The notes under the pieces: model-generated
Told to the model about the DNA's origin: nothing
What the model saw: only the letters and a program-made list of their open reading frames with translations
Database searches by the model: none
Source of the DNA: a virus
Virus record (IMG/VR): IMGVR_UViG_3300042691_041718
Location: 1 to 64,000 of that record
Strand: one strand, 5' to 3'
DNA: 64,000 bases
Part shown: piece by piece, positions 9,410 to 63,871 of the stretch
Position numbering within the stretch: the stretch's first letter is position 1
Layout: the number at the start of each line of letters is the position of its first letter
Position numbers and translations under genes: made by a program

Positions 9410-10375
9410 ATGAAGTATTTGAAAAATATTGAAAATTTTAAAGAGAGTTTAAGAAATAATGTTAGATTGATAGAAAATGTTAACTATCACAGAACTAATG
9501 TTAAAAATCTAGGTGAAGTTATTTTACCAGATCCAGAGTTTGGAGATTTTAAATTAAGTGTTATGCCATTTGAAAATACAGGAGGTTGGGTTTCTTTACC
9601 CGAAGGATTTAAAATATGGGAGGAAGCTTTTAATGAAGTAATTAAAAATATACCTCTACAAGAAGGCGCGAATACACACTATGTTACAATTGATACTAAA
9701 TTCTTCACAACTGATGAGTTTCTTAGAAGAGAAGGAGTTCATATTGATGGTAATTTTTGTGTTGATCCTAACTTCAAAAAATTAAACGAGACAAAAGTTG
9801 ATGATGTTTTAAGTGATGATTTCTTCGATGATGTTGAAGATTACGAGGATGAATTTAAAGCTTCTTGGGGTGGTGCTGAACCAAAGCCAAGTTGGGGTGG
9901 TGCTGAACCAAAGCCAAGTTGGGGTGGTGCTAGGTACGATGATGATTTTAAAGCTTCTTGGGGTGGTGCTGAACCACAACCAAGTTGGGGAGGTGCTCGT
10001 ATAAAAGAGTATCAATATGAAGCTAAGTCTGATAACTCTCATGTTAAAATGGATTGGGTATTACCGTATAAAGATGTTATTATTCCAATTGCTGATTATG
10101 TGTCTGAAAGTAAAGGAGGTATTCTAACTGTATCAACTGAAGTTGGGTGTCAGGCTTGGAGTGGTGAGTTCTATGGTGAGATTTTAGGAGAAGGTTCATT
10201 TGAAAAAATGCAAGAACAATTGACCGATGATAGAAAAGTTGTATTTGAAAAGAATCAATTGTATTTTATGTCAAGTAATACACCACATGAAACTCTTTTG
10301 ATTAGTAAAGGTAAACGTAGAACATTTATGAGAATTACATTAAACCACAATTATGAAAATAAAAATATAAAGTAA
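9410..10375 (+). CDS. Putative 2OG-Fe(II) dioxygenase with SWGGA repeat insertion and CTS-like leader
   Basis: RREGVHIDG (HxD), distal PHET, RTFMR; leader MKYLKNIENFKE. Confidence 0.6.
   Translation: MKYLKNIENFKESLRNNVRLIENVNYHRTNVKNLGEVILPDPEFGDFKLSVMPFENTGGWVSLPEGFKIWEEAFNEVIKNIPLQEGANTHYVTIDTKFFTTDEFLRREGVHIDGNFCVDPNFKKLNETKVDDVLSDDFFDDVEDYEDEFKASWGGAEPKPSWGGAEPKPSWGGARYDDDFKASWGGAEPQPSWGGARIKEYQYEAKSDNSHVKMDWVLPYKDVIIPIADYVSESKGGILTVSTEVGCQAWSGEFYGEILGEGSFEKMQEQLTDDRKVVFEKNQLYFMSSNTPHETLLISKGKRRTFMRITLNHNYENKNIK
9852..9997 (+). repeat. Coding tandem repeat, 27-bp unit (SWGGAEPKP), five SWGGA copies
   Basis: TTGGGGTGGTGCTGAACCAAAGCCAAG repeated directly; higher-order duplication of FKASWGGAEPxPSWGGAR. 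Confidence 0.95.
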
Positions 10376-11001
10376 TGAAATACATAAAGAGTTATAACGA
10401 AAATAAAGTTCATTCTTATGATTCAATGGATACAGAGGATCTTGAAGAGTTATTACATTGGTCAAGAATTGAATATAACGAATTGGGTGATAAAATTAGA
10501 GATATAAATGCTGTTCTAACAAAAAGAAAAGAAGAGGGTGAAGAATCTCATTCTAAGTCATTACCGGTTAGTATATTTGATTTTAATAAAGAACAATGTG
10601 ATTGGATATTTGAACACGGTCATGGAACAACGAGTAAAAAATATAATATCTCAAATAAGTATTTTGAACAACTTAAAGGTTTTTTTACATCTGGATTTAA
10701 TCCAGATACAAACCAATTTGCTTTTAAATTAAGTAAATTCTATTTCGATAATACTGATTTAGATTTAATCATAAAAAGTATGAAATTTTTAGGTGATAAC
10801 TTAAAAAGAGTTAATTATACAATAAATGGTGAACATAAAGATATTGTTCAGTTTGGTGTTCAATATGAACATTTAGAAGATTATGATCATAAGGTTAATT
10901 ATGTTAGTGAGAATGAATTATATCTCGTTCAATATAGAACTAAAAAGTTTGATAGTATCAAATCTCTAATAGATTATATTATATCAATAGATAATGAATA
11001 A
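10375..11001 (+). CDS. Hypothetical protein with CTS-like leader
   Basis: Starts MKYIKSYNE. Confidence 0.7.
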   Translation: MKYIKSYNENKVHSYDSMDTEDLEELLHWSRIEYNELGDKIRDINAVLTKRKEEGEESHSKSLPVSIFDFNKEQCDWIFEHGHGTTSKKYNISNKYFEQLKGFFTSGFNPDTNQFAFKLSKFYFDNTDLDLIIKSMKFLGDNLKRVNYTINGEHKDIVQFGVQYEHLEDYDHKVNYVSENELYLVQYRTKKFDSIKSLIDYIISIDNE

Positions 11002-11028
11002 AAAAAACCAGTCATTGACTGGTTTTTT
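11002..11028. terminator. Bidirectional intrinsic terminator
   Basis: AAAAAACCAGTCA-T-TGACTGGTTTTTT. Confidence 0.85.
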
Positions 11029-11030
11029 GT

Positions 11031-12050
11031 TTACTTATTAAATCTATTAAAAGCGTTATCACTAATTTGAATCCACTCAACTTCTCCACAGTATTCTTCT
11101 AAAGTTCTACACCCGGTATAAGACATAGCAGACTTTAAATAATCTGTAAAGTTTTCACACCAACCAGATAATTTATATTCTACATTATTATATTTACTAA
11201 TGCCTTCTCCAGTTTTAATTACTTTTCTATTCCAAGACTTTTGAACTTCTTTTGTTGACATACCTCTATAATACTTATAGATAGTAGCACCTTCATCAAA
11301 GTATTTCTCAGCTTCTTCTTTAGATAGTTGTGTAAAGTCTCCTAATTCGTTTTTAGAAAAACTATCACTACAACTTTCTAAACATTTGTTGAAAACACCA
11401 CCCAACATAACAGCATCAGCACCCATCGCTAAAGCTTTAATTATATCTGAAAAGTTTTTAAATCCACCATCAGCGATAATCTTTGTTGGTTTATCAACAC
11501 CATAAGAAAGATCTTTACATTCTCTTATTAAAGAAGCCATTGGATAGTGAATAGCGACGTTAGCTGAAGTTGTACAAGCAGAACCACCACCAATACCAAC
11601 TCTGATCCAATCAACACCAATTTCACAAAATTCTCTATAAGTTTTTGGATTAGCGATATTACCAACCATAAGTTCAATGTTGTCTCCAAATTTTTCCTTT
11701 AATAGTTTAGAAACCTCCCAAAGTCTAAGCATATTTCCGTTTGCTACGTCAATAAGAACCTTCTTTGGTAATTTAGAATCTGAATTGTATAAATTGTAGA
11801 TTTCGTCTAATCCATAAGAGTAAAAATAGTTATCATTTTTTAAAGTATCATACTTAACATTTCTTGGTAAGCAAATGTTTATATAGTTTTTTTCAAATTC
11901 ATTTATGTTTTTCTCATCTATTACTGTATCCATAGGAGCTGTAAATAGTGGTAACTTATCATTTAAATATGGATTTATCTCACTTCTTGAAGAAATTGAA
12001 GAGATCATCGCTGGTACTATACTAATATCATTCCAATCAAGTTTTATCAT
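11031..12050 (-). CDS. IMP dehydrogenase / GMP reductase family protein (no CBS domains)
   Basis: TAPMDTV, IDVANG, VGIGGGSACTT catalytic loop, IADGG, GADAVMLG, YRGMST. Confidence 0.9.
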   Translation of the reverse strand: MIKLDWNDISIVPAMISSISSRSEINPYLNDKLPLFTAPMDTVIDEKNINEFEKNYINICLPRNVKYDTLKNDNYFYSYGLDEIYNLYNSDSKLPKKVLIDVANGNMLRLWEVSKLLKEKFGDNIELMVGNIANPKTYREFCEIGVDWIRVGIGGGSACTTSANVAIHYPMASLIRECKDLSYGVDKPTKIIADGGFKNFSDIIKALAMGADAVMLGGVFNKCLESCSDSFSKNELGDFTQLSKEEAEKYFDEGATIYKYYRGMSTKEVQKSWNRKVIKTGEGISKYNNVEYKLSGWCENFTDYLKSAMSYTGCRTLEEYCGEVEWIQISDNAFNRFNK

Positions 12051-12127
12051 AAGGAAAATTTATTTTTTTATCATATGTCCATTAGCAGACATTCGTAATT
12101 TAATATATATATTAAATTACGAATCTT

Positions 12128-12775
12128 ATGTTATTAACAAAAAAGATAAAAACGACAATAGTTCCTCTAAACTATAACAGACTAAGTGAATTTTATGATG
12201 TTAAGATGTATGATATTATAGAAATTGACATAAATCATTTATCTCATAAAAGTCCAATTATAATAGATTGTTGTTGTGAAATATGTGGATCTCATAAAAA
12301 GCTACAATATAGAGCCTATTTGAGGAATAAAAGTAGATATAATTATTATTCATGTAAAGGTTGTAAAAATAAAAAGACTTCTATTACAAAAGAAAGAATA
12401 TATGGTGACTCAAAATATAATAATTCGAATAAGATGATAAAAACTAAAGAGGAAAAGGGTATTTATATACCATTTGAATCTTCTATTGATTTTAAAAAAT
12501 ATAGAAAATTAGTTAATAGAATAACCAATAGAAATAAACCTTATTTATTTGAGATTTGGGATGGTCTTGATTTTTATGATAAAGAGAACATTTTGGAAAA
12601 TATGAAATTAAACTCCAATGATATGTCATATCCGACGATAGACCATAAAATATCAATTTATCAAGGTTTTAAAGAGTCTATACCACCTTATATCATAGGT
12701 GGTATAGATAATTGTTGTATAACAAAAAGAAGAATAAATTTACTTAAAAGTAATAAATATAATTTTGAATATTAA
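12128..12775 (+). mobile_element. Putative HNH homing endonuclease
   Basis: CEICG..CKGC zinc motif, PTIDHKISI..GF, N..KS. Confidence 0.7.
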
Positions 12776-13086
12776 TAAAAGCTATACTTATCTTCTTCTT
12801 TTACACAATAAATAGATGCTGGATACATTCTCAACTCACCTTCAGTTTCCTCAACGATAAATCTCATTGAACCATCGATAATTTCTTGATTACAGATTTT
12901 AACTGTTGAGTTTTTAACTTCTTTTAAGATTTCAAATGCTTCTGGTTCTATGTCACTAGACATAACTAAGTAATTACTTTTACCAAATAATTTACCATTA
13001 GTTCCTTCCTCAAAGTAGGATTTTTCAATAATAGATTTTAAAACTTCTGAGTTTTGAAACTCAATTTTAACTTCGTGTTTTAACAT
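12772..13086 (-). CDS. Hypothetical protein
   Basis: 104-aa ORF in minus-strand run. Confidence 0.65.
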   Translation of the reverse strand: MLKHEVKIEFQNSEVLKSIIEKSYFEEGTNGKLFGKSNYLVMSSDIEPEAFEILKEVKNSTVKICNQEIIDGSMRFIVEETEGELRMYPASIYCVKEEDKYSFY

Positions 13087-13110
13087 TTTATGTTGTTTTA
13101 TAATTAATTA

Positions 13111-13332
13111 CTAAATATGATATGAGATATTTATTGATGTTATATCATCAACACTTATTACGGGTTCTGTGTTTAAAATTTCCACAAATAATTCCCATGA
13201 ATCATGTGATTGATAATCACTATGATTTTTATTTATCTTCTTAATAATAGGTATTAAGGAGTTTACTTGAGTATGTGTTACCTCAATTTCTTTTCTTAAA
13301 TCTTCTGTGTCTATAATCAAAAAAGCTCTCAT
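13111..13332 (-). CDS. Hypothetical protein
   Basis: 73-aa ORF. Confidence 0.55.
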   Translation of the reverse strand: MRAFLIIDTEDLRKEIEVTHTQVNSLIPIIKKINKNHSDYQSHDSWELFVEILNTEPVISVDDITSINISYHI

Positions 13333-13348
13333 ATAAACATTGTATATC

Positions 13349-13732
13349 TTACACAGCTAAAAGTTTTTTTATTTCATCACTTCCATCCGGATTTGCTGAA
13401 TGAATAATATATTCAGGAAAGTTTAAGTTTCTTTCTTTACAATAGTTAAGTAAAAAAATAACACAATCCAATCCAGTATAAACTCTATTTTCATCTAGAT
13501 TAAACCAATATTCAAATGGAAGTTCTTCTTTTAATTCTTCAACATCAGCTAAATCATAATCAAATGCTACTAAATCTGGTATACCATTTTCAATTATCCA
13601 AGATTTAAATTGACCATACGATCTTACTATATCCCATTCTTCGTGGAATACGGTACAATTCACCTTTCTTTGCCACATATAAGTAGCACAGTCTCTAGGA
13701 ATTCGCCAATCGTCTAAAAATAACCTTTTCAT
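13349..13732 (-). CDS. Cyclic-phosphate-processing Receiver-like domain protein
   Basis: RLFLDDWRIP, AFDYDL, TGLDC, IHSANP.G; start moved to 13732 because the upstream ATG lies in the promoter. Confidence 0.75.
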   Translation of the reverse strand: MKRLFLDDWRIPRDCATYMWQRKVNCTVFHEEWDIVRSYGQFKSWIIENGIPDLVAFDYDLADVEELKEELPFEYWFNLDENRVYTGLDCVIFLLNYCKERNLNFPEYIIHSANPDGSDEIKKLLAV

Positions 13733-13770
13733 AATAGCAAACATACGGATAATTTTTTAATATATAAAAT

Positions 13771-14334
13771 ATGATTTGTAAAAAATGTTCCATTGATAAA
13801 GAGTTGAGTGATTTTCACAAGAAGAAAAATTCTAAAACTGGATATCAAATTTATTGTAAAGATTGCTCAAAAGATATGGTTAAAAAACATTACAAATCAA
13901 ATACTAATAGAGTTTTAGAAAGAAAACGATTATATAGGAATACCGGTGATTATAAAATAAAATCAAAGAATTATGAGAGTAGTTATTCGGAGAGAAGAAA
14001 GGAACTTAGAAAAAATAATCTAAATATTAGAATCGGAAATTCAGCTAGGGATATTCTAAGAAGATGTTTAAAATATTTTGGAGTAAAAAAGAATAAAAAA
14101 ACATTTGAGATTTTAGGGTATAATAGTCTTAAATTGAAACAAAGAATAGAATGTCAATTTAAAGACGGAATGTCTTGGGATAATTATGGTGAATGGCATA
14201 TTGATCATAAAAAACCAATAAGTAAATTTAATAAAAATACAAAATTGAGTACAGTAAATTCTCTATCAAACTTACAACCACTTTGGGCAAAAGATAATTT
14301 GTCAAAAGGTAATAAATTTAAAGAAACGGCTTAG
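13771..14334 (+). mobile_element. HNH homing endonuclease
   Basis: CKKC..CKDC, WHIDHKKP, NLQPLWAKDNLSKG. Confidence 0.88.
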
Positions 14335-14376
14335 GACCCGTTATAGTTAAAGCCCCTCTGGGTGGACTATATTTTT

Positions 14377-14416
14377 GAAAACCACTGAATTCGCTCCTCG
14401 GTGGTTTTCTTTTTTT
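14377..14416 (+). terminator. Intrinsic terminator-like hairpin upstream of nrdB
   Basis: GAAAACCACTGA / TCGGTGGTTTTC stem followed by a T-run. Confidence 0.7.
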
Positions 14417-14469
14417 AAAAACTAAACAAATTTCAAATTGAATATATAAAAAAAACAAAATAAATTATT

Positions 14470-15429
14470 ATGGAAGAACATATTTTAAAAGAAAACAAAA
14501 GTCGTTTTGTGATGTTTCCGTTGAAATATCATGACATTTGGGAAAAGTATAAAACTGCTGAAATGTCATTTTGGACGAGCGAAGAGATTGATTTAGCACA
14601 AGATTTAACTGACTGGAATGAAAAATTAAATGATGATGAAAAACATTATATTAAAAATGTTTTAGCATTCTTCGCTGCATCTGATGGTATCGTAAATGAA
14701 AACTTAGCTGAGAATTTCTTAAAAGAAGTTCAGTATCCAGAGGCTAAAAGTTTTTATGGTTTTCAAATAGCAATGGAGAATGTTCACTCTGAAACTTACT
14801 CTTTATTGATTGATACTTATATCAAAGATTCTAAAGAAAGAGATCATTTATTCAATGCTATTGAAACAGTACCATCTGTTAAAAAGAAAGCTGAGTGGGC
14901 ACTTAAATGGATTGAATCTGATTCATTTGCTGAAAGATTAATTGCCTTTGCTGCTGTTGAAGGTATCTTTTTCTCTGGATCATTCTGTTCTATTTTCTGG
15001 TTAAAGAAAAGAGGTTTAATGCCAGGTTTAGCATTCTCTAATGAGTTAATTTCAAGAGATGAAGGTTTACACTGTGAGTTCGCTTGTTTGTTACATAACA
15101 AATACATCACGAATAAAGTTAGTGCTGAAAGAATTACTGAGATTATTACTGAAGCAGTTGAGATTGAAAAAGAATTCGTTACTGATTCTTTACCAGTTTC
15201 TTTAATTGGTATGAACGCTAAGATGATGCAACAATACATAGAGTTCGTTGCTGACTTCTGGTTAACTGAATTAGGTTGTAAGAAAGTTTATAACTCTGAA
15301 AATCCTTTTGATTTTATGGATATGCTTTCTTTACAAAACAAATCTAACTTCTTCGAGAAAAGAGTTTCTGAATATCAAAAAGCTTCTGATAAGAATATTG
15401 ACTTTGATAGTTTAGATGATGATTTCTAA
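14470..15429 (+). CDS. nrdB: Ribonucleotide reductase class Ia beta subunit
   Basis: [47 protein letters not shown]. Confidence 0.97.
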
Positions 15430-15769
15430 GATTGATTTTTTAAAGGACTTTAAATTCATTGCAAAACCAGATGAATATTATGTTGGTGGAACCGAAGTTA
15501 CAATAGAATCTGATTACACTGAATGGAATCAAAATCTATTAGTTTCAAGTGGTTGGGGATTTTTCAGAGGACTTACAATGGTTTCGTATAGAGGATATGA
15601 TGGTGAATTACCAAGAATGGATGGAGACACTGCTAGTTTTGCTGAGTTTGATATTTATTACAAAGATGAATTATTAAGTGAAGAAATTACATATGGGGAT
15701 TTACTTAATATGATTAAGTCTGAATCGAGAAATGAAATAATAGAAGAAATAATAAAACCACTCAATTGA
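15416..15769 (+). CDS. Hypothetical protein with C-terminal RNxxI tag
   Basis: Ends [14 protein letters not shown]. Confidence 0.65.
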
Positions 15770-15780: not shown

Positions 15781-16086
15781 TTATTTTAAGTGTTTTTTGA
15801 TTTCACTTTTAATTTTTCCTAATTGGTCGTATTTGAATTCTTCGGCTTTCTCACCTACTTTCTTAACACCAACATAATCTTTACGGAACATTACTTGAAC
15901 TTTAACATCTTCTAAGTTAACTTCTAAATCTGTACCAACAGTTTTAACTTTAGCGTCTTTCATATTTTTCAAGAAGTTCTCAATAGTTTCTCTGAATTTT
16001 TCAACTTTAACATCAGAATCAGATGATTTAGATGCTTTCATTGTTTTACCTTCGTTGAACATATCCCAAGTTTTGATATTTTTCAT
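15781..16086 (-). CDS. Hypothetical protein with CTS-like leader
   Basis: Starts MKNIKTWDMFNE; TAATATATA upstream. Confidence 0.7.
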   Translation of the reverse strand: MKNIKTWDMFNEGKTMKASKSSDSDVKVEKFRETIENFLKNMKDAKVKTVGTDLEVNLEDVKVQVMFRKDYVGVKKVGEKAEEFKYDQLGKIKSEIKKHLK

Positions 16087-16130
16087 CTTGTCGTTTTATT
16101 TTTATATATTAAAAATTAAATATATAAATA

Positions 16131-16493
16131 ATGAAAAAACTTAAATTATTTGAGAGTTTTAACTTTGAATCCGAATTATCGGACTTAGTAAACTCTATAC
16201 CCGATTCTGATATTCCATCTCAAACAAATATCATAACTAAAATTGGAGATAAAATTATTTATACCGAAGGTTGGTGTGATAGATGTTTTTCAAACTATGA
16301 TGTTTATGATAGAGATGAAATGGTACAAATGGCTAAAGAACTTGGTGAAAAGAGATTAAAAGATATTCCAAGATTACCACAATATAAAATTAGGTTTGAA
16401 GGATATGAATTAGAAGATGTTAAGTTCTATGATTTACCGGATAACTCATATAATTATGCACTGTCGGTTGGTATTTATAGTCGTAAAAATTAA
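16131..16493 (+). CDS. Hypothetical protein with CTS-like leader
   Basis: Starts MKKLKLFESFNFE. Confidence 0.7.
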   Translation: MKKLKLFESFNFESELSDLVNSIPDSDIPSQTNIITKIGDKIIYTEGWCDRCFSNYDVYDRDEMVQMAKELGEKRLKDIPRLPQYKIRFEGYELEDVKFYDLPDNSYNYALSVGIYSRKN

Positions 16494-16503
16494 TATATAG
16501 AAT

Positions 16504-16794
16504 ATGAAGATATTGAAATTTGAAGAGTTTAGTATAAATGAGGCTTTACCTCGTCAACAAACAGTAGATCAGTTAAAAAAAGTTATGAAGATGTCAGCTA
16601 AAACTGATATTGGTAATCGTATTTCTGATATGAATAAACAAGGTGCTAACATTCAATATATTGAAAATCCTATTGATAGTGGTATTGAGTCATATGAAGA
16701 CTATGAAAAACACAACAAGAAGTTTGTCTCTTCTTGGAACTTAAAAGGTATGTTAGGTCCGTTTAAAGGTGAAGATAATAAACAAAATAAATAA
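16504..16794 (+). CDS. Hypothetical protein with CTS-like leader
   Basis: Starts MKILKFEEFSINE. Confidence 0.7.
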   Translation: MKILKFEEFSINEALPRQQTVDQLKKVMKMSAKTDIGNRISDMNKQGANIQYIENPIDSGIESYEDYEKHNKKFVSSWNLKGMLGPFKGEDNKQNK

Positions 16795-16797
16795 ATT

Positions 16798-17265
16798 GTG
16801 AAAAGGATAAAAAGTTTTAAGTTGTTTGAATCAACAGGTAGTAAAATGACGGCAAAAGATAGAGTTGTTGTTCTATCTGAGGTTAGAGAGGATATAGAAG
16901 GTATACTTTATGAGTTAGAAGATCATTTAGTTGATTGTAAAGTAAATATTCAATCTATTTATTTAAAAAATGAGGATAGATTTGGTCGTTCTTGTGATGA
17001 TTTTAGTTCAACCTTTCATGGTGATGATGATGGAAATGGTTTAATGCTTATGGTTACTATGGATGAAGTTGAACAAGATAAAAATAAAGATTTATTAGAA
17101 AGGTTTCTTCGTTTATTAAAAGAACATTTAGATTATGTGTGTATTGGTAATAGAATAGGAATGTCTAGTAATAGAGTTCGTGTTGCGTACACAATTGATT
17201 TGAGAGGTTATATGAATAAATTGATGGACAATCTTGAAGAAAATAAAAAAGTAAATAAAATATGA
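16798..17265 (+). CDS. Hypothetical protein with CTS-like leader (GTG start)
   Basis: Starts MKRIKSFKLFES. Confidence 0.7.
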   Translation: MKRIKSFKLFESTGSKMTAKDRVVVLSEVREDIEGILYELEDHLVDCKVNIQSIYLKNEDRFGRSCDDFSSTFHGDDDGNGLMLMVTMDEVEQDKNKDLLERFLRLLKEHLDYVCIGNRIGMSSNRVRVAYTIDLRGYMNKLMDNLEENKKVNKI

Positions 17266-17606
17266 AAAGGATAAAAAGCTTTAAGTTGTTTGAATCTGTT
17301 TTAGAATTACCTGATAAGGAATATATTGAAGATGTTTTGATGGAACTACCAAGTTATTTTAAATATACTATTAGTTATTTTGATAAACCAGTTGATCAAG
17401 TTACAATCGATATCTCATCAAAGAATAAATTTACTTTAGATGAAATATCAGATGTATTTAACCATTTGGATAATTATCTTAAAGGATTTGGATTCAGATT
17501 GTATAGAAGAGGAGAAGTTGATTCTAAATCAATTAGAAATCCAGCGACATTCTCAATTGATTATATCAATTATAATTTACACATATCATATATAAGAAGA
17601 AATTAA
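17262..17606 (+). CDS. Hypothetical protein with CTS-like leader
   Basis: Starts MKRIKSFKLFES, same leader as previous gene. Confidence 0.7.
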   Translation: MKRIKSFKLFESVLELPDKEYIEDVLMELPSYFKYTISYFDKPVDQVTIDISSKNKFTLDEISDVFNHLDNYLKGFGFRLYRRGEVDSKSIRNPATFSIDYINYNLHISYIRRN

Positions 17607-17629
17607 TAATTAAAATTAATATATACATT

Positions 17630-18274
17630 ATGAAATATTTGAAAAGATTTAATGAGGCTGTAATTCAACCATATGATTTCACGGAAGCTCTTGAAAAAGT
17701 TAGATCAATGAGTAACATAACATTAGATAACTTAAAAGAGATATTCAATGATATGAATGTTGAGTTTGTTGATGTTGAATACTTTAAATCTAAACTACAA
17801 ACAAAAAAGGAAATCGAGTTGGTTCCGGTTGATATGCCTCCATTAATGGGTGGTATTCGATGGGGAGCTCATAATGTTTATACTAATAAAATGTATATCT
17901 GTATAGATGAGAATGAGTTTATAAAGTCTATTAATAGTCCATTAAAGAATAGGTTATTAGACTTTTTGGAAGAAGTATTAAGACACGAATCTGTACATAA
18001 ACAACAAGCTCAAAGAAGACCAGATGTAACTATAAGAAACTTAGAAAGATCACCAGTGGATCATAAGAAATATTTTAGTTCAACCGATGAAGTTATGGCT
18101 TATGCTGACTCATTTATTGTTCAATGTAGAAAAGTGGGAATGAGTGATGATGATATTTTAGATGTTTTGAGAGGTGGTAAAAAAGTATCTTGGATTCAAA
18201 ATGTTTATTCTTCTATGGATTTAGAAACTCAAAAGAGATTTAAAAAATATGTATATGAATACATTAAAAAATAA
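17630..18274 (+). CDS. Hypothetical protein with CTS-like leader, possible zincin-like motif
   Basis: MKYLKRFNE; LRHESVHKQQ (HExxH) and downstream DEVMAYA. Confidence 0.6.
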   Translation: MKYLKRFNEAVIQPYDFTEALEKVRSMSNITLDNLKEIFNDMNVEFVDVEYFKSKLQTKKEIELVPVDMPPLMGGIRWGAHNVYTNKMYICIDENEFIKSINSPLKNRLLDFLEEVLRHESVHKQQAQRRPDVTIRNLERSPVDHKKYFSSTDEVMAYADSFIVQCRKVGMSDDDILDVLRGGKKVSWIQNVYSSMDLETQKRFKKYVYEYIKK

Positions 18275-18284
18275 AAAATACAAT

Positions 18285-18515
18285 ATGAAATACTTAAATA
18301 AATATAATGAAAATAATAGTCAGATGAAACAATTTGTTTTAACGACTACAAGTGAAAGTTCTGATCACTACATCTATTTTATTGAGCACCCACAAATGCC
18401 TACAAGAGAAGAGTTAAATAAGTTTCTAGTTGAACAAGGTAGTGATGTTTCTGATGGTGAATCTTATGAAGATATTGATATGTGTGTTGAGATAAATAAT
18501 TTCAAGAGAATTTAA
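18285..18515 (+). CDS. Hypothetical protein with CTS-like leader
   Basis: Start reassigned to MKYLNKYNE. Confidence 0.65.
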   Translation: MKYLNKYNENNSQMKQFVLTTTSESSDHYIYFIEHPQMPTREELNKFLVEQGSDVSDGESYEDIDMCVEINNFKRI

Positions 18516-18530
18516 AAAATAAAAATAGAT

Positions 18531-18854
18531 ATGAAATATTTAAAAACGTTTGAAGGTTATAATGATAAGAGTTTAGCTGAAGAAATTGCTGAAGATATTC
18601 TACCAAAACTAGAAGAAATTAAAAAGGAAAAAGGTAAGTTCACAGTAGGTATGTTTGATAATTACATGGAAGAAAGAAAAGGTGATATGAAACTAACCGA
18701 TGAAGTTATGTCTGAATTGGTAAATATGGGTTTTGATTTTGATTCGGATGACGATGATGAAGATTATTATGATGAAGATGAAGACGATGATCAAGATGGA
18801 CCACCTCCAGGATTTGAAGGTTATCCTGGCCCAGGTTATTATAGTTTAAACTAA
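18531..18854 (+). CDS. Acidic hypothetical protein with CTS-like leader
   Basis: MKYLKTFEGYN; D/E-rich tail. Confidence 0.7.
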   Translation: MKYLKTFEGYNDKSLAEEIAEDILPKLEEIKKEKGKFTVGMFDNYMEERKGDMKLTDEVMSELVNMGFDFDSDDDDEDYYDEDEDDDQDGPPPGFEGYPGPGYYSLN

Positions 18855-18855
18855 T

Positions 18856-18890
18856 AAAAAAAAAGAGTGATTATAAATCACTCTTTTTTT
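18856..18890. terminator. Bidirectional intrinsic terminator
   Basis: A-run GAGTGAT..ATCACTC T-run. Confidence 0.8.
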
Positions 18891-19272
18891 CTTCATTGAG
18901 ATATTTTATAAAATCAACTACTGTTCTCCAGTAGTTTTCTATTTTACTACCTTTTGAGTTTAGTCCGTTATACTCTACTTTTTTATAGACTTTACCACTA
19001 TATGGACATTTTTCTTCTATTAAACATCTATGACCAGATAAAGTAACCCAATTATAAATATCTTCTTCTAATTTATCAATCACTCTAAAGAGTGAGTCAT
19101 ATGAAATATGATATCTTAGTGTTCCATATTCTTCACTACAAAGACTCGCGGCTACCCATAAGTCTTTAGTTTCAATTCCACCCTCATAAGTATCTGATTT
19201 AAGAAGTTCCCAGTTAGGAACCATAAACTCAGCTATGATTTTATTGCCTTCTATTATTTCTTCACTAGTCAT
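18871..19272 (-). CDS. Hypothetical protein
   Basis: 133 aa, GNKIIAEFM start and YHISYDSL segment. Confidence 0.65.
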   Translation of the reverse strand: MTSEEIIEGNKIIAEFMVPNWELLKSDTYEGGIETKDLWVAASLCSEEYGTLRYHISYDSLFRVIDKLEEDIYNWVTLSGHRCLIEEKCPYSGKVYKKVEYNGLNSKGSKIENYWRTVVDFIKYLNEEKKSDL

Positions 19273-19442
19273 TATTTCAAAACCATATATTTAACACCAT
19301 CTACGATTTTGGTAACATATTTACCAGTTTCTTTTTTCTCAGCATTTTTAGTAGCTCTTTTGGTAGCAACTTTACCACCTTTAGATTTTTCTACTTCTCC
19401 ATACTTTTGTTTTAAAACCTCTTTCATTGAATATCTTTCCAT
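19272..19442 (-). CDS. Small basic hypothetical protein (56 aa)
   Basis: MERYSMKEVLKQKYGEVEKSKGG...; TATATTTG promoter at 19471..19464. Confidence 0.65.
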   Translation of the reverse strand: MERYSMKEVLKQKYGEVEKSKGGKVATKRATKNAEKKETGKYVTKIVDGVKYMVLK

Positions 19443-19508
19443 AACTCGTCTTATTTTGTTTTACAAATATAATAACTTTTTTGGAATGGCGATATAAATA
19501 TATAGAAT

Positions 19509-21774: not shown

Positions 21775-21790
21775 GATTTGAAAAATCAAT

Positions 21791-21826
21791 AAAAAAAGTG
21801 TCCTCAAAAAAGAGGACACTTTTTTT
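21791..21826 (+). terminator. Intrinsic terminator
   Basis: AAAAAAAGTGTCCTC..GAGGACACTTTTTTT. Confidence 0.85.
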
Positions 21827-21837
21827 ATATATAACTT

Positions 21838-53891: not shown

Positions 53892-54377
53892 ATGTATAAT
53901 CAAAAATTATTTATGGGAAAGATAGAAAAATATAAAGACTTCGCAAGAAAGTTTCAACACAAGTGGAACCAAGACACTCCAACTGAAATAAATCTACCTA
54001 GTTATTTAGATGAAGAGGAAGAGAAAAAGAAGATTGAGATGGAACAAGAGTTAGAAAATGGAGAAGATGAAATAAGTGAAAGCTATTTAAACTCTAAAGA
54101 ACTAATTTTTACAGGAAAAAGAAATAGAAATTTACAAATAACAGTTGTATTAGATAGTTCAATGAGAATAGAATCAATTGACAATAAAGCTAATATTAGA
54201 TTTCCTTTCCATGTTGGTCAAAGAATAAATAGAAATATTGAGGTTTGGGCTTGTAATAACAACTTCTTATTAAACGGAGAAGATACTTGTCCAGAGAAAA
54301 AGATATTTGGTGTTAGAGCATCTGATGTACCACAAGGTCACGAGTGGAGAAAAATATACCCAGGTAAATTTAAATAA
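53892..54377 (+). CDS. Hypothetical protein
   Basis: Late-type promoter; probable start MGKIEKYKDF. Confidence 0.65.
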   Translation: MYNQKLFMGKIEKYKDFARKFQHKWNQDTPTEINLPSYLDEEEEKKKIEMEQELENGEDEISESYLNSKELIFTGKRNRNLQITVVLDSSMRIESIDNKANIRFPFHVGQRINRNIEVWACNNNFLLNGEDTCPEKKIFGVRASDVPQGHEWRKIYPGKFK

Positions 54378-54769
54378 TGAAACACCTAAGAAAGTTTAAC
54401 GAAAGTATAAATGAGCATCTTGATATAGAATATATCAAACATTGTTTTAATGACTTATCAGATGATCCAGAATGTGATGTAGAATATGATACACATGAAG
54501 ATTATCTACGTGATAATCCAAACGATGAAATCACACTTAATGACGAATATGTTGATTTAACCATAGATATCCCTAGAATAACTAAGGGTGGAACTTTTGA
54601 AAGAATGATTGGTAATTCTGAAAGAATATCACATATTATTAAATCAATTGATATCTCAATCAAAAGATTAAAAGATGAATATCCTAATTATAATATTGAA
54701 ATAAATTACGAAGAGGATGATGATAGACCAAATGACTACTTCCAGATAAATATAAATAATAAAAAATGA
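54377..54769 (+). CDS. Hypothetical protein with CTS-like leader
   Basis: MKHLRKFNE; paralog of 55149. Confidence 0.75.
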   Translation: MKHLRKFNESINEHLDIEYIKHCFNDLSDDPECDVEYDTHEDYLRDNPNDEITLNDEYVDLTIDIPRITKGGTFERMIGNSERISHIIKSIDISIKRLKDEYPNYNIEINYEEDDDRPNDYFQININNKK

Positions 54770-55152
54770 AACACCTAAGAAAATTTAATGAAAGTTTTGA
54801 AGATGAAACTAAATCATATCTAGAAACACTTTTTGCTGATATCTCAGAGAGTGGTTACTATAATGTTAATATTTTGATAGCAAAACCAATAAGAGTGGAA
54901 GGTGTTCAATGTGTTTATGTTGAAGTTAAATTGGAACCTGTTGAAGGTAAATTATGGAATAGATCACCATATGGAAATGCTGGTTTTTTAAAAGCGTCAA
55001 TTGAAAATGAGATGGAAATATTAAGAATTAAACAAGAAACACTTAATAGTATAAACGCCATAATTAAAGATATAGAAAGTGAAGGAAATGAAGTTAACTT
55101 CATTGTAAATAGAATTGGTGAGTTAAAAATAAATATTGAATATAAAGTATGA
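54766..55152 (+). CDS. Hypothetical protein with CTS-like leader
   Basis: MKHLRKFNE. Confidence 0.75.
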   Translation: MKHLRKFNESFEDETKSYLETLFADISESGYYNVNILIAKPIRVEGVQCVYVEVKLEPVEGKLWNRSPYGNAGFLKASIENEMEILRIKQETLNSINAIIKDIESEGNEVNFIVNRIGELKINIEYKV

Positions 55153-55571
55153 AACACCTAAGAAAATTTAACGAAAATACCGATAATTCAATTGATGTTG
55201 AGTATATCAAACATTGTTTCACTGATTTAGTGGAATATTCATATAATGAAGATAATGAATGTGGTGAATTCCGTTGGGGCAATTCAGAAACACTTGAAGA
55301 AGTAACCGAAAGTGGAAACCCAACAGATTGTAGAGTATTTATAAATTGTCCTGAGTTAGAAGTGAAATTCACAGCAGATGGATATAAAGGAGAAATATCC
55401 GACTTTATTGAATTTAATAAAATAACAAATGAATTCCTTCTTAAATTGGAAGGTGCTATAAATAACCTAAAAGACGAATATCCTAATTATAAAGTGGAAG
55501 TTTTGTATGAACAACCTTTATTAAGAGGTCATCAAGGATATGATTACTATTGTGTATGTATTAGTTTATAA
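55149..55571 (+). CDS. Hypothetical protein with CTS-like leader
   Basis: MKHLRKFNE; shares EYIKHCF.DL and LKDEYPNY with 54377. Confidence 0.75.
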   Translation: MKHLRKFNENTDNSIDVEYIKHCFTDLVEYSYNEDNECGEFRWGNSETLEEVTESGNPTDCRVFINCPELEVKFTADGYKGEISDFIEFNKITNEFLLKLEGAINNLKDEYPNYKVEVLYEQPLLRGHQGYDYYCVCISL

Positions 55572-56732: not shown

Positions 56733-57956
56733 ATGGCAAAACAAGGAAAAGAAACGAAGAAATTTGAGTTTAGTAAAGTTGGATCAATATTAGATAATAT
56801 TGCAAAATCAGTTCCAATTTTAGTAGAAAAAGAAATTAAAGAAAAACAATTTATAACAACTGGTGTTTATTTATTAGATGCTGCTTTATCTGGTAGATTA
56901 TTAGGGGGTGGTATTGCTACAAATAGAATAACTGCGTTTGCTGGTGAATCAGGTGCTGGTAAGAGCTTTCTTTGTTACTCATGTGCTAAACAAGCTCAGA
57001 AATTAGGATATTCAGTAATATACATTGATACTGAACAGGCTATTGATTTAGAAGACTTACCAAAATTTGGAATTGATAACTCTTTAGATAAATTTAGATT
57101 AGTTAGATCTAATAAAGTAGAAGACGTGAACATAACTTTAACAAAATTGATAGATGAGTTAAAAGAACAAAAACTAGCTGGTTATGAGATGCCTAAATTG
57201 ATGATTGTTTTAGATTCTTTGGGACAAATGGCTTCAAATAAAGAAAAAGAAGATTTATTAAAAGGTGATATTAAACAAGATATGACTAAAGCTAAAGCAC
57301 TTGGTTCTATGTTTAGAAGTATAAATACAGACTTGGGTTACTTAGAAATTCCACTTTTGGTGGCAAACCATACATATCTAACAATGGATCTTTTTCCACA
57401 AGAGCGACTCCGCGGAGGTAATGGTCTACTTTATTCAGCATCTGTAATTGGATTTATGTCAAAAAGTAAATTAAAAACTTCTGAAGAGGATGAAATGGAT
57501 TTAGGTGCTTCCGGTATTACAGTACTTTTCAAAACTCAAAAAAATAGATTGGCAAAACCTAAGAAAATTAGATTTGATATATCTTTTATTCATGGTATGA
57601 ATCCTTACACTGGCTTAGACGCATTTTGTCGTCCAGAATTCTTTGAACAAATTGGTATCGCAAAAGGTAAAGAAGAAGTTGATAAATCAACTGGTGAGAT
57701 TAAGTTTGTTCCTGGTGGAAACCGTTGGTATATTTCTCACTTAGGGAAATCAGTTACAACAAAACAATTATTTACTCAAGAGGTGTTTACACAAGATGTT
57801 TTAGAAAAAATGGCACCAATTGTTAATGATTATTTCAGATTCAAATCATTGGATGAAATTGAAGAGGTTGAAAAACAGTTCAATGAAGTAATGGGTGGAG
57901 ATGATGATGATAATGATGGATATGTTGATAGTGATGCAGCAGATCTATTTGAATAA
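56733..57956 (+). CDS. uvsX: UvsX/RecA-like recombinase
   Basis: GESGAGKS, YIDTE, VLDSLG, NHTY, GG.G..YSAS. Confidence 0.92.
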   Translation: MAKQGKETKKFEFSKVGSILDNIAKSVPILVEKEIKEKQFITTGVYLLDAALSGRLLGGGIATNRITAFAGESGAGKSFLCYSCAKQAQKLGYSVIYIDTEQAIDLEDLPKFGIDNSLDKFRLVRSNKVEDVNITLTKLIDELKEQKLAGYEMPKLMIVLDSLGQMASNKEKEDLLKGDIKQDMTKAKALGSMFRSINTDLGYLEIPLLVANHTYLTMDLFPQERLRGGNGLLYSASVIGFMSKSKLKTSEEDEMDLGASGITVLFKTQKNRLAKPKKIRFDISFIHGMNPYTGLDAFCRPEFFEQIGIAKGKEEVDKSTGEIKFVPGGNRWYISHLGKSVTTKQLFTQEVFTQDVLEKMAPIVNDYFRFKSLDEIEEVEKQFNEVMGGDDDDNDGYVDSDAADLFE

Positions 57957-58972: not shown

Positions 58973-59470
58973 ATGAAGGTAATATTTTTAGATCATGACG
59001 GAGTGGTTTGTTTAAGTCGTGAATGGAGTAGTCGTTTTCAGAAAAAGAAACGATTTATTCTTGAGGGTGGAGACGAAGATGATATTCCTGCTTACATTCG
59101 TTTAGACAATTTCAATAAGATGGCAGTTGATGTTTTAAATGATATAATATTAACATCTGGTGCTGAGATAGTTTGTTCTAGTGATTGGCGTTTACATGCT
59201 ACGTTAGATGAAATGAAAGATTTATTTCACCGATATGGTGTTATAAAAGGTCCTATTGATTTCACACCAGAACTTCAAACAATCACTAAGAAAGCTGATA
59301 TACGAGTAGATGAAATTAACTTATGGTTAAGTAATCATCCAGAGGTAACACATTGGGTTGCTATTGATGATATGGATTTAAGTGAATTAGATAATTTCGT
59401 TAAAACTCGTGAGCGAGAAGGTTTAAAACAATGTAACATATCAAGTAAGATTTTAAAGTTTTTAGAATGA
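58973..59470 (+). CDS. HAD-family phosphatase (Swiss Army Knife RNA-repair type)
   Basis: IFLDHDGV, IVCSSDWR, R..EI..WL, WVAIDD. Confidence 0.85.
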   Translation: MKVIFLDHDGVVCLSREWSSRFQKKKRFILEGGDEDDIPAYIRLDNFNKMAVDVLNDIILTSGAEIVCSSDWRLHATLDEMKDLFHRYGVIKGPIDFTPELQTITKKADIRVDEINLWLSNHPEVTHWVAIDDMDLSELDNFVKTREREGLKQCNISSKILKFLE

Positions 59471-60335: not shown

Positions 60336-60336
60336 T

Positions 60337-60678
60337 TTAACCAGTTGAATCTATAAATTTCATTTCTTTAGCTGTGATACCACTAGGTTTATCATGACTT
60401 TTGCTACGCGCTCTATGAGTATGAATAAAATACCCATCTTTATCAATACCCATATCATATCCATTTGGATATCCACCTTCTTTAATTTTCCTTTTTAATT
60501 CTGGGTGTAATTCTAGTCCAAAAACTTTACCTTTTTTAACACTTGTCACATATTTAACGAGTTCATAAGCAACTTCTTTTAATTCTTTTGGTAAACCGTG
60601 TAGGTTTTTAATAGATTTAATCTTATCTTCTTTATTAAAAGAAAATTGGAATTCCTCAAACAACTTTATTCTTTTCAT
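60337..60678 (-). CDS. Hypothetical protein with CTS-like leader
   Basis: MKRIKLFEEF. Confidence 0.7.
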   Translation of the reverse strand: MKRIKLFEEFQFSFNKEDKIKSIKNLHGLPKELKEVAYELVKYVTSVKKGKVFGLELHPELKRKIKEGGYPNGYDMGIDKDGYFIHTHRARSKSHDKPSGITAKEMKFIDSTG

Positions 60679-60942: not shown

Positions 60943-61677
60943 ATGAAAATTTGTAGTATTTGTAATATTGAAAAGGATGAGATAAATTTCTATAAAAGAA
61001 AATCCTCTAAGGATGGATTGCGTAAAGATTGTAAAGATTGTTGTTATAGTAGAAATAAAAAATGGATTAGTAATAATATTGAAGTGGTTAAATCTATCAA
61101 GGATAAATATTATCAAAATAATAAACAAGATGTTATAGACCGTTCATATGAATGGGTAAAAAATAACAAAGATAAACGTTCGAAAATATTAAAAAAATAT
61201 AACTCAAAAGAGGAGGTTATTGAAAGAATTAAAAATAGATATTTGGAGAATAAACATACTATAAAAATTAAGAGTAGGAAATATAAGTTCGAAAATAGAG
61301 AAAAATTAAATGAGAAACTTAGATATAAGTATAACAATGATTTTCAATATAAATTTAAAGTTTTGGTGAAAAACTTAATTACTAAATCCTTTAAAAGATG
61401 TGGTTATACTAAAATTAGTAAAACATATGACATATTAGGATGTTCATTTGAGGAGTTTAAAACCTATTTAGAATCTAAATTTGAAGATTGGATGTCTTGG
61501 GATAATAGAGGTTTATATAATGGTGAATTAAATTATGGATGGGATATAGATCATATAGTACCATTATCATCTGCAATTAATATTGATGAAGTTTTAAAAC
61601 TAAATCATTATACCAATTTACAACCTCTATGTAGTAAAGTGAATAGAGATATTAAAAAAGATAAATTAAATTATTAA
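60943..61677 (+). mobile_element. HNH homing endonuclease
   Basis: CSIC..CKDC, WDIDHIVPL, HYTNLQPL. Confidence 0.88.
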
Positions 61678-61679
61678 CT

Positions 61680-62339
61680 ATGGAGTTATTCTATTTTGAC
61701 ATAGAGTGTGTTGGATCATATAAAGATTATGAAACCTTTTGTTTAGAAGATGAGAGAGGTTCTAAACTATTTAGTGAGAAATATAAAAGAATGAGTTGGG
61801 ATCAAAAATACGACTCTGTTGATGATGCTTATATAAAGCAAAGTGGTATTATAACCACTTATGGTAAGATATGTTGTATATCATTTGGTTATGTTAGTGA
61901 ATCAGGTGAGAAACAAATAAGAAGTTTTTATGGCGAAAATGAGAAGGAAATTGTAAATAACTTTAATGAATTACTTAAAAAAGTAGAATTAAAAAATTTA
62001 AAATTATGTGGATATAGAATTTTATATTATGATTTAATTTTCATTTTACATAAACTTCATAAGTATGGTATTAAACCTGCTAATATTATTTACTTATATG
62101 ATAAAAAACCTTGGGATGCTAGAATAGTCGATATAGCAGATGATTGGAAACAAAAATTTGCCTGGGCTTTTTCTTTTGATGAAGTTTGTTATGAATTAGG
62201 TGTTAAGTCACCTAAAGAGAATATGAATGGTTCTGAAGTACATAAATACTATCATAAAGGTAAATTAGAAGATATAAAAAGATATTGTGAAATGGATGTT
62301 AGTTCATCTATTGATGTTGGTAACATTCTTTATAATTAA
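61680..62339 (+). CDS. PolB-like 3'-5' exonuclease (DEDD)
   Basis: YFDIE, GKICCIS.G, GYRILYYDL, SPK..M.GS.V, YCEMDV. Confidence 0.85.
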   Translation: MELFYFDIECVGSYKDYETFCLEDERGSKLFSEKYKRMSWDQKYDSVDDAYIKQSGIITTYGKICCISFGYVSESGEKQIRSFYGENEKEIVNNFNELLKKVELKNLKLCGYRILYYDLIFILHKLHKYGIKPANIIYLYDKKPWDARIVDIADDWKQKFAWAFSFDEVCYELGVKSPKENMNGSEVHKYYHKGKLEDIKRYCEMDVSSSIDVGNILYN

Positions 62340-63871
62340 ATCTTATTTATAATTCTAATTGTTTTATCTATATTCTCGTTGAAAAATTTTAATTCATCAT
62401 CATTTGATGGTGTTGAATCAGTTAATATATCTTTTAATGTTTTTATTTGATCTAGATAACCAACTTCTTTAACAACATCTAAAATCATATTCATTCTTTT
62501 TCTTATAACAAAAAGATCATCTAAATCTTCTATTATATTAGGTTTTATCTTCTTTGTAACTAGTTCACCTAATTGGAATATTTTATTTAGGACTTCTTTT
62601 CCTAATTCACTATTCATTCCCTTAGTTAAACTATCGAATTTTGATTTTTTAGTATGTAGTCTCTGAATTATTTCAAAAATCAACTTAACTTTTAAATCAG
62701 TATCTAAATTTGTACTAATTTGATTAAAATTTATTAAAGTTAATTTAGCAGCCAAATCTCTAACGTTATCACTAGATTTATGATCTCCTATTTCATTTGA
62801 AATTCTATCTGTTTGTGATGAAAAATATTTAGTTACTTCAGTTTTAGAATCACCATTTAAAGTTGAGTACCATTTACGTAATTTATCCATATAAAAGTTA
62901 GGTCTTTCTTCTTCTTCTTCTATATTTTTATCTTCTTTAATTTTAATTAGTTTATCTAAATCTAAAGCTGAGTTTGATATATCAAACATAATCCATTTAT
63001 TGAAAAGTACCTTATCAAATAATGAGTTGAAATTATCAGTATTAGCCATTTTCAATATTCTATTATTAAAATTAGTCTTTCTAATTTCTTCATTTGAAAG
63101 TAATGCTGTTGCACCACTTCTCATTTCTTCTCTACTTGATTTAATATTCTTTCTATTTTTAGAAGTGTCTAATTTAGAAGTATTAAAAACGATAGCAAAT
63201 TGTGATTCACTTAAACTCTTTTTAGTAAATGCGTCATTTGAATCTATTTTTTTATTCCATAACTCTTCTCCATTATTTTCGGGTTTTAATGACCATATAG
63301 TCCAATCACTATCAACTAAACTCCAAGATCTATTACCCCAATCTGTCCAATCTTCATTATCTGGTTCTGAGCCTTCTAAATAACAATCTTCATCACTATA
63401 AATGGCATACATCCTTACTCGATCACCATTAGGTTCAATATAAAGTGTGGCACGTGTTTTAACATCATCATCAAATTCGTCAAAATTAATGAATATCTTA
63501 TCTAAGTGGTTTATCAATCCACTCCTAAAATCATCTCTTAATTCACTAAAATAGCTATATTCTTTGTCTTCTGTGTAACCAGTTCTGGATTTCAACGCTA
63601 CTCCATCAGTTAAAGATATATTTATCAAATTAGCATTGGTATCTAACCAAAACTTATAGATTTTATCATTACCTTCTACTTTATCAAAAGCTTTATTGAA
63701 TGTTAAATACTCAAAATATTCATCTTTTAGTTCTGAATATGGAAAATCAATTTCATCACAAATACTCTTAACTTTATTTAAGAAAAGTATTTTAGATTCC
63801 TTTGATAAATATCTTAATGTTTTAGATAATAATTGTGATTTAAATGCCTCGAATAACTTTATGTGTTTCAT
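62336..63871 (-). CDS. Large hypothetical protein with CTS-like leader
   Basis: MKHIKLFEAF; late-type promoter upstream. Confidence 0.7.
   Translation of the reverse strand: MKHIKLFEAFKSQLLSKTLRYLSKESKILFLNKVKSICDEIDFPYSELKDEYFEYLTFNKAFDKVEGNDKIYKFWLDTNANLINISLTDGVALKSRTGYTEDKEYSYFSELRDDFRSGLINHLDKIFINFDEFDDDVKTRATLYIEPNGDRVRMYAIYSDEDCYLEGSEPDNEDWTDWGNRSWSLVDSDWTIWSLKPENNGEELWNKKIDSNDAFTKKSLSESQFAIVFNTSKLDTSKNRKNIKSSREEMRSGATALLSNEEIRKTNFNNRILKMANTDNFNSLFDKVLFNKWIMFDISNSALDLDKLIKIKEDKNIEEEEERPNFYMDKLRKWYSTLNGDSKTEVTKYFSSQTDRISNEIGDHKSSDNVRDLAAKLTLINFNQISTNLDTDLKVKLIFEIIQRLHTKKSKFDSLTKGMNSELGKEVLNKIFQLGELVTKKIKPNIIEDLDDLFVIRKRMNMILDVVKEVGYLDQIKTLKDILTDSTPSNDDELKFFNENIDKTIRIINKI

Follow-up and report, generated by a model that had tools for sequence, protein, structure and literature searches.

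Why do so many otherwise unrelated proteins of one virus begin with nearly the same short peptide? The question is raised by the first 64 kb (hereafter the window) of the 186,465-bp IMG/VR virus record IMGVR_UViG_3300042691_041718 (G+C 27%), in which 17 open reading frames (ORFs) start with leaders such as MKYLKRFNE, MKHLRKFNE or MIKKYIEFINE. The original prediction read these leaders as a family of capsid-targeting sequences (CTS) of the bacteriophage T4 kind, marking proteins that are packaged into the head and ejected into the host. Comparison with the related huge-phage genomes LR745206.1, LR756502.1 and LR756501.1 (abbreviated W01, W02 and W04) supports a real, modular signal that acts at the level of the peptide, and we estimate a probability of about 55% that this signal is a cleavable head-targeting peptide of the T4 CTS kind. 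We infer packaging and cleavage of the leader proteins, to which ejection and anti-defence roles may be added by analogy with T4 IPI* (PMC3012670).

A recurrent leader at protein N-termini

Each of the 17 N-termini first listed is the start of an ORF; four of them, known by the low (3′) ends of minus-strand ORFs (15781, 40029, 60337 and 62336), have their true starts at 16086, 40517, 60678 and 63871, respectively. Of the record's 236 genes, 18 begin with the strict motif ^MK.[IL][KRN].[FYW]; shuffling residues 2-16 within each protein gives an expectation of 0.17, and the motif is found at none of the 788 internal Met positions. With variants included, 26 genes of the record carry a leader, about one in ten of the genes on the fragment. 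The positions of the motif predict one another: when genes are picked by positions 2, 4 and 5 alone, position 7 is F/Y in 85% and position 3 is Y/H in 83%, and when they are picked by positions 7-9 alone, position 4 is L/I in 96%.

The leader spans ~10-20 residues at the extreme N-terminus of the precursor and always begins at residue 1, in all 17 window cases and in the 62 cases of W01. It occurs in two forms, type A, which reads MK[YH][LI]KxF(N)E or MK[YH][LI]KxYK[IL]FE, and type B, which reads MIKK[FY]xxF[IL]xE and places [FY] and F at positions 5 and 8, a spacing equal to that of positions 4 and 7. Leaders tend to have a cleavage-like ending. Within residues 5-15, 56-78% of leader proteins and 6-10% of other proteins have a hydrophobic-x-Glu with S, A, G, N or T behind it, and in 74% of leaders the first Glu precedes S, A, G or N; Glu lies outside the defining regular expression.

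A Sec, Tat or lipoprotein signal peptide was considered and rejected, since the leader, a charged and amphipathic peptide with acidic residues behind it, has no hydrophobic region. A transmembrane-like 19-residue window is present in 1 of 62 leader proteins, compared with 10% of other proteins.

Conservation and modularity of the peptide

Selection acts on the peptide, because synonymous codons within the leader follow genome-wide usage (AAA/AAG 74/26, GAA/GAG 59/41, six Leu/Ile codons at position 4) and the third-position identity between leaders, 0.55-0.63, matches what codon bias alone yields. Replacements within the leader are physicochemically conservative (L/I, F/Y, K/R). These properties bear on the idea that conservation lies in the mRNA, where an element within the first 30 nt would serve translation initiation or regulation and is perhaps tied to near-leaderless transcripts. 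That idea would accommodate the promoter found 4-5 nt from the start codon in many leader genes, as well as the first 27-33 nt that are almost identical among the genes at 54377, 54766 and 55149 and between those at 16798 and 17262; set against the codon usage, the conservative replacements and the half of the leader genes that are operon-internal and have no promoter, it is highly improbable. The near-identical starts are a local exception to peptide-only conservation, and the 16798 and 17262 genes, almost identical over their first 33 nt, diverge immediately past FES. Gene conversion among neighbouring leaders was also considered and rejected, adjacent and distant pairs in W01 having nucleotide identities of 0.71 vs 0.68.

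Behind the leader, the proteins differ. After the first 14 residues are trimmed, BLAST links solely a five-member family of 511-590-aa proteins and the pair 54377/55149 (29% identity), and the trimmed 54766 product matches neither 54377 nor 55149. Several cases suggest that the leader has been recombined onto different domains. The body of the protein encoded at 16504-16794 is the C-terminal domain of a longer W01 leader protein, the ORF at 19509-19679 is a deletion remnant in which a leader is fused to the final ~30 residues of a 438-aa W01 protein, and the protein encoded from 17630 has a W01 homologue that begins MKHIKKYKTFE↓AVIIP (the arrow marks the cut, predicted in the megaphages), with the leader subtype exchanged and the junction retained. 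In the family of the 9410-10375 protein, with 304 homologues, the conserved leader reads MKYLKNxxKFKES; a spacer of ~5-20 residues comes next, and then LIENVNYH, where the conserved fold starts.

An alternative is that the shared N-terminus is the inherited start of one vastly expanded, fast-diverging family and has no addressing function. Tandem arrays are indeed frequent (15781-19679 and 54377-55571 in the window, runs of 8-11 in W02), and small proteins may diverge past BLAST detection. This reading is distinctly unlikely when set against a leader that occurs on proteins of 56-590 aa with different predicted folds, is the best conserved and yet an unstructured segment, is set off from the fold by spacers of differing length, has been recombined onto different domains, and exists in two forms that swap between lineages while the cargo differs.

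AlphaFold2 (AF2) models illustrate the separation of leader and fold. In the model of the 511-aa protein, built on a 42-sequence alignment, residues 1-12 are unstructured (pLDDT 41) and the first helix starts from residue 13, while E8, F10 and S12 are invariant across the 42 homologues; in that of the 321-aa protein encoded at 9410-10375, residues 1-20 have pLDDT values of 51-59 and the fold begins near residue 22. The two models differ in fold. Foldseek gave weak and consistent matches of the 321-aa protein to Fe(II)/2-oxoglutarate dioxygenases, with an HxD...H core, and no credible match of the 511-aa protein in the PDB. As the leader is highly conserved and makes no intramolecular contacts, it resembles a linear motif that is recognised in trans.

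Conserved, unstructured and modular are, however, properties expected of any short motif recognised in trans, and the leader could be a tag for another machine, either a degron or adaptor site for a phage ClpC-like unfoldase with ClpP or a handle for DnaJ-type chaperones, which would time how long a class of middle or late proteins lasts or when it folds. At 35399-37588 (−) the window has a gene for a 729-aa double-AAA+ Clp ATPase whose GVGF loop is of the ClpP-docking type, and 2-3 ClpP genes are present in the relatives (E as low as 4e-78); the clade therefore appears to own a Clp protease. We consider such a tag unlikely, since it offers no specific explanation for the ending in hydrophobic-x-Glu and a small residue, for the likeness to both the scaffold repeat and the T4 CTS, or for the match to the T4 targeting positions, all described below. 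We know of no degron of this form. Were the leader nevertheless addressed to another machine, it would still be a proteome-wide sorting signal of a kind not found described for phages in the literature searched. The Clp ATPase itself carries AAA_2, AAA_lid_9 and ClpB_D2-small domains and a UVR motif, with an acidic Ser-rich N-terminus in place of Clp_N. Two genes read as DnaJ-like from their J-domain-type N-termini lie at 6106-7176 (+) of the window and at 114964-115677 (−) of the record.

Distribution among megaphages

The UvsX-like recombinase encoded at 56733-57956 is 85% identical to that of W01 (634,780 bp), 81% to that of W02 (642,428 bp), 59% to that of LR756504.1, 50% to that of W04 (735 kb) and 34% to those of Lak phages. 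The 186-kb record is therefore a fragment of a megaphage genome with a full size of ~640 kb rather than a T4-sized genome, and its completeness estimate of 69% is an overestimate. Both of the closest relatives are uncultured huge phages, W02 from a French lake and W01 from the Japanese subsurface.

Leaders extend through this clade. In W01, which was tiled completely for the count, 62 of 924 genes begin with the strict motif and 9 more with the MIKK[FY]... form. A DNA version of the type A motif has 71 matches in W02 and 34 in LR756504.1, against 2-3 in the reversed control, and no matches in the 735-kb W04, Lak-A2 or 201phi2-1. W04 has type B in place of type A: 40 of its 1011 genes begin M[IVLT][KR]x[FYW]xx[FYWIL] (1.9 in the shuffle null), typical leaders being MIKKFKLFE↓S and MIKKYKQFINE↓G, and a strict type B DNA pattern has 21 matches vs 0 in the control. 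The proposal that the leader is a universal feature of huge phages was rejected, because neither form is enriched in Lak-A2 or 201phi2-1 and the 735-kb genome has type B instead of type A. In IMG/VR, a pattern scan picked out 35 stretches with the type A leader, on low-GC contigs of 4-640 kb; many of these stretches share the promoter described below. A literature search found no description of this leader.

Two features of the relatives' leader genes stand apart from these counts. In W02, small leader genes form arrays of 8-11 successive members at a spacing of ~450-550 bp (10312-15638 and 21672-25135). In W04, many type B proteins share a second motif, DPYGEE[ID]W, 3-8 residues past the leader, for example those encoded at 5130-5426 (−), 297634-297945 (+) and 474929-476339 (+).

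Head genes and scaffold repeats of the clade

The relatives possess a head module of the T4 type. In W01 the head genes stand in T4 order, with a portal (PF07230, E 4e-58), a protease-scaffold protein and a gp23-type capsid protein (PF07068, E 7e-26). The protease-scaffold protein is 707 aa long (198546-200669), and its first ~150 residues align with T4 gp21 such that GEFDHP lies opposite GELNHP and VSSRAAG opposite VSSRGLG, the catalytic His and Ser motifs. The set of gp21-type protease, scaffold and capsid protein was found in W01, W02 and W04, with both catalytic motifs kept; the Pfam S77 score of the relatives' protease is 20-23 bits, under the curated cut-off of 27.

The remainder of the 707-aa protein is scaffold-like and consists of 11-14 tandem 14-residue repeats, NLDKNIAYSEYIAE, followed by a poly-Glu/Asp stretch, an arrangement shared by the protease-scaffold proteins of W02 and W04 (73913-76336 in the latter). 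The core of this repeat, YSEYIAE, is the core of the T4 tag, and the megaphage scaffold repeats and the T4 CTS have a motif in common with the N-terminus of T4 gp22 (MLKEQLIAE↓A), a protein full of [LI][AF]E sites. T4 gp22, gp67 and gp68 are acidic, rich in [LI]-x-E and cut by gp21 to small peptides; in the megaphages, by contrast, scaffold and protease form one fusion protein, and the scaffold part is made up of regular 14-residue repeats.

The repeat also leads back to the leader. The pattern [FY]..[FY][ILV].E, which was derived from the scaffold repeat and not from the leaders, is enriched at protein N-termini vs protein interiors 24-fold in W04 and 10-fold in W01. Likely cleavage sites of the clade share the form hydrophobic-x-E↓N, as IIE↓N at the N-terminus of the protease, IAE↓N in the repeats, INE↓N in the N-terminal region of the capsid protein and LIE↓N in the 9410 family; the N-terminus of the T4 protease has LIE-9 (PMC9026906).

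Comparison with T4 and phiKZ-like phages

In T4 the CTS of the internal proteins IPI, IPII and IPIII is removed by the prohead protease gp21 (Mullaney and Black 1996, as reviewed in PMC9026906, PMC3012670 and PMC5694885), IPII and IPIII beginning MKTYQEFIAE↓A and IPI beginning MKTFKEF...ITE↓A in NC_000866. Amber-suppression work assigned targeting to CTS residues 4 and 7 (Y4 and F7 in IPIII) and processing to residues 8 and 10 (PMC9026906), and these positions correspond to the conserved positions of the leader. The CTS and the leader are both N-terminal peptides of 10-20 residues on otherwise unrelated proteins; Lys occupies position 2 or 3, positions 4 and 7 are hydrophobic or aromatic, and the end, in most leaders, is a hydrophobic-x-Glu with a small residue behind it. 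Type B is closer than type A, its K-x-[YF]-x-x-F-[IL]-x-E standing in register with T4 K-T-Y-Q-E-F-I-A-E, whereas in the dominant type A (MK[YH]LKxFNE) position 4 is L/I where T4 has Y/F, and P3 is F where T4 has L/I. Around the leader, the clade resembles T4 in having gp20-, gp21- and gp23-type head genes in T4 order and differs from it in the fusion of its protease to a repeat scaffold. The T4-like character asserted by the original prediction finds support in the residues at positions 4 and 7, the Glu at the end and the T4-type head module of the clade, and departs from T4 in the mature proteins, which are acidic and not basic.

A T4 start pattern of K2, F/Y4 and F7 has 10 matches in the T4 genome and 2 in the reversed control, and MKT[FY].EF accounts for four of the 10, ipI, ipII, ipIII and gene 61.1. 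The last encodes a 54-aa hypothetical protein (18966-19130, −) whose start, MKTFKEF, equals the first seven residues of the IPI targeting sequence.

The phiKZ-like phages phiKZ, 201phi2-1 and SPN3US provide a second comparison, their head and ejection proteins carrying propeptides that are cut by the gp175/gp245 protease at S/A/G-x-E (PMC5694885, PMC10052503). They share with the megaphages a large number of head-internal proteins (predicted in the megaphages), including paralogues in which the N-terminus is conserved and the remainder diverged (SPN3US gp53/gp54), a cut after Glu (likewise predicted) and propeptides that have been proposed to target the prohead. Their propeptides mostly exceed 100 residues and have no common short motif, in contrast to a near-uniform leader of ~10 residues, and P3 in the leader is hydrophobic rather than S/A/G, with AF2 folds beginning at residue 13 or ~22. 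Neither leader pattern has a match in 201phi2-1, used as the phiKZ-like control genome.

Properties of the cargo

Leader proteins range from 56 to 590 aa, with medians of 135-161 aa. The 26 of the record have no Pfam match, and a PHROGs search of them returned solely families of unknown function. Among the 71 leader proteins of W01, Pfam gave single matches to 2H-phosphoesterase/Acb1 with RNase T, Peptidase_M15_4, NFACT-R and MazE-like domains: a 438-aa protein combines an Acb1-like 2H-phosphoesterase with an RNase T-type exonuclease domain, the Peptidase_M15_4 protein has 164 aa and an HxxGxAxD motif, and the NFACT-R protein is encoded directly 3′ of the capsid gene. The 9410-10375 product is a conserved core enzyme-like protein rather than a variable effector, and its C-terminal domain resembles 201phi2-1 gp185.

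The composition of the cargo brings in a further reading, in which the leader does target the prohead and most carriers are assembly-phase accessories of the core or scaffold that are degraded or expelled upon DNA entry and form no injected payload. Leader proteins are mostly acidic, as are T4 gp22, gp67 and gp68 and the poly-Glu region of the phage's own scaffold, many leader proteins are small, and the T4 proteins named are cleaved and exit the head (PMC5694885). Enzyme-like domains (Fe/2OG dioxygenase-like, Acb1-like with exonuclease, M15 peptidase) would be odd for a scaffold, however, and in T4 acidic foreign proteins bearing a CTS were retained in the head and delivered (PMC9026906). On balance this reading is quite unlikely, and cleavable targeting of retained cargo is preferred.

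The leader also avoids another terminal motif. A C-terminal tag, R[DNE]x[KR][LI]xx[LI][LG], is present on none of 80 leader proteins vs 91 of 1080 others in the record and W01. Leader and C-terminal tag are mutually exclusive, which suggests two separate address labels on ~8% of proteins each.

Promoters and expression class

The original prediction placed most leader genes behind TAATATATA. At the operon level this is correct; gene by gene, the motif itself or a version differing at one base immediately precedes ~8 of the 17, and the rest come after a gene of that kind. Within 60 nt upstream, exact TAATATATA is found for 39% of strict-leader genes vs 17% of others in the record, and upstream matches in W01 amount to 42% of leader genes vs 14% of others. 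As it also precedes the portal, large structural-type genes, UvsX, PhoH and homing endonucleases, TAATATATA has the appearance of a general phage promoter; a leader-specific or strictly late signal was rejected on account of its presence before UvsX, PhoH and homing endonucleases.

Many genes for small proteins and enzymes lie behind a second promoter-like element, TAnnTTTG (typically TATATTTGTAA). It lies 4-30 nt upstream of 7376-7552 (−), 19272-19442 (−), 44085-44447 (−), 46810-46977 (−), 48585-49820 (−), 53610-53837 (−) and 58973-59470 (+). We take it to resemble the −7 box of Bacteroidota, and this likeness points to a Bacteroidota host and to an early gene class. This host-type element (TATATTTG) stands before none of the 62 leader genes of W01 and none of the 18 of the record, compared with 8% of other genes, which places leader genes outside the class transcribed by the host polymerase. 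The promoter pattern of leader genes fits proteins produced along with the particle, though TAATATATA is unspecific.

TAATATATA often ends exactly 4-5 nt before the ATG (for example 16490-16506, 17616-17632, 40518-40531, 42465-42481 and 49930-49946), and a second class lies 16-25 nt upstream. If transcription began a few bases past TAATATATA, as it does at T4 late promoters, then many mRNAs would have little or no 5′ untranslated leader.

A proposed loading and trimming pathway

If the leader is a head-targeting peptide, its hydrophobic or aromatic residues at positions 4 and 7 would dock the precursor on the scaffolding core of the assembling prohead, a core made of the tandem ...YSEYIAE... 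repeats that the leader resembles. After closure of the shell, the gp21-type prohead protease would cut past the Glu of the hydrophobic-x-Glu at the end of the leader, and in some families probably also at a second site beyond the variable spacer. The mature protein would remain in the head and could exit with the DNA at the next infection.

Several points weigh against this reading. Megaphages are all uncultured and their particles uncharacterised (PMC9723777). Pfam searches of the 186-kb record for the S77 protease and gp23 were negative, and it has no protease, scaffold or capsid gene, so the link to head genes rests on the relatives. Leader and T4 CTS resemble each other over ~10 residues, a stretch not long enough to test for homology, and the strict T4 residue at P3 (L/I) is present in only 29-53% of leaders, F being commonest there. 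The carriers number 60-100 per genome (7-10% of genes), compared with three or four in T4, and 78-90% of leader proteins are net acidic (median −3 to −5 charges per 100 residues), whereas T4 internal proteins are basic and DNA-binding. One leader protein alone has a homologue in a virion-analysed phage, and this homologue, 201phi2-1 gp185, which matches the C-terminal domain only, lacks a virion annotation, and the ClpC-like ATPase and ClpP of the clade could read an N-terminal tag.

Should the leader prove to be a loading and trimming signal, the head cargo of the whole 630-735-kb clade could be listed from its genomes, yielding hundreds of candidate proteins for host takeover and counter-defence in the first minute of infection, together with a short tag that could be transferred to foreign proteins to load them into large capsids. 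The T4 model would be extended in three respects: by the scale, ~1 gene in 10, by the acidic cargo and by what looks like mimicry of the scaffold repeat.

A more far-reaching version, which we regard as tentative and rather doubtful, holds that the leader mimics the 14-residue repeat of the scaffold, such that any tagged protein co-assembles with the core, and that the clade loads, trims and injects 60-100 proteins per genome (7-10% of coding capacity), with a second, exclusive C-terminal label on a further 8%. The injected proteome would then match the effector repertoire of a secretion system in size and would be readable from sequence.

Leader genes of the window

The first two leader genes lie on the plus strand at 9410-10375 and 10375-11001. 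The former encodes the 321-aa protein, which starts MKYLKNIENFKE↓S and continues through the variable spacer to LIE↓NVNYH and the HxD...H dioxygenase-like core, and the latter a 208-aa protein with MKYIKSYNE↓N, whose W01 orthologue is 44% identical and retains the leader.

A denser group follows. The minus-strand gene at 15781-16086 encodes a 101-aa protein beginning MKNIKTWDMFNE↓G, with TAATATATA 16 nt upstream; the remainder are on the plus strand. The 120-aa product of 16131-16493 begins MKKLKLFE↓S, and the 96-aa product of 16504-16794 begins MKILKFEEFSINE↓A, with TAATATATA 4 nt from the ATG. The pair at 16798-17265 (155 aa, GTG start, (V)KRIKSFKLFE↓S) and 17262-17606 (114 aa, MKRIKSFKLFE↓S) is followed by 17630-18274 (214 aa, MKYLKRFNE↓A), by 18285-18515 (76 aa, MKYLNKYNE↓N, read from an ATG inside the ORF called from 18249) and by 18531-18854 (107 aa, MKYLKTFE↓G, with a W01 orthologue 73% identical). 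The 56-aa remnant at 19509-19679 carries the type B leader MIKKYIEFINE↓G.

Further along, the minus-strand gene at 40029-40517 encodes a 162-aa protein with a weak variant of the leader, MKKFFEFFDDE, whose W01 orthologue begins MSIKRLYEFFDDE. Three tandem plus-strand genes at 54377-54769, 54766-55152 and 55149-55571 all encode MKHLRKFNE↓S/N. On the minus strand, 60337-60678 encodes a 113-aa protein that begins MKRIKLFEE↓F, with TTTATATATA 4 nt from the ATG, and 62336-63871 encodes the 511-aa protein, MKHIKLFE↓AFK↓S, a member of the 511-590-aa family, the other four copies of which are at record coordinates 64905, 66662, 81052 and 175989. Proteins of this family also have a CPxCxGTG zinc-finger-like motif.

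Other genes

Elsewhere in the window, a 638-aa protein encoded at 40517-42433 (−) has flavodoxin/FMN-reductase-like ends split by an intein with a LAGLIDADG endonuclease domain.

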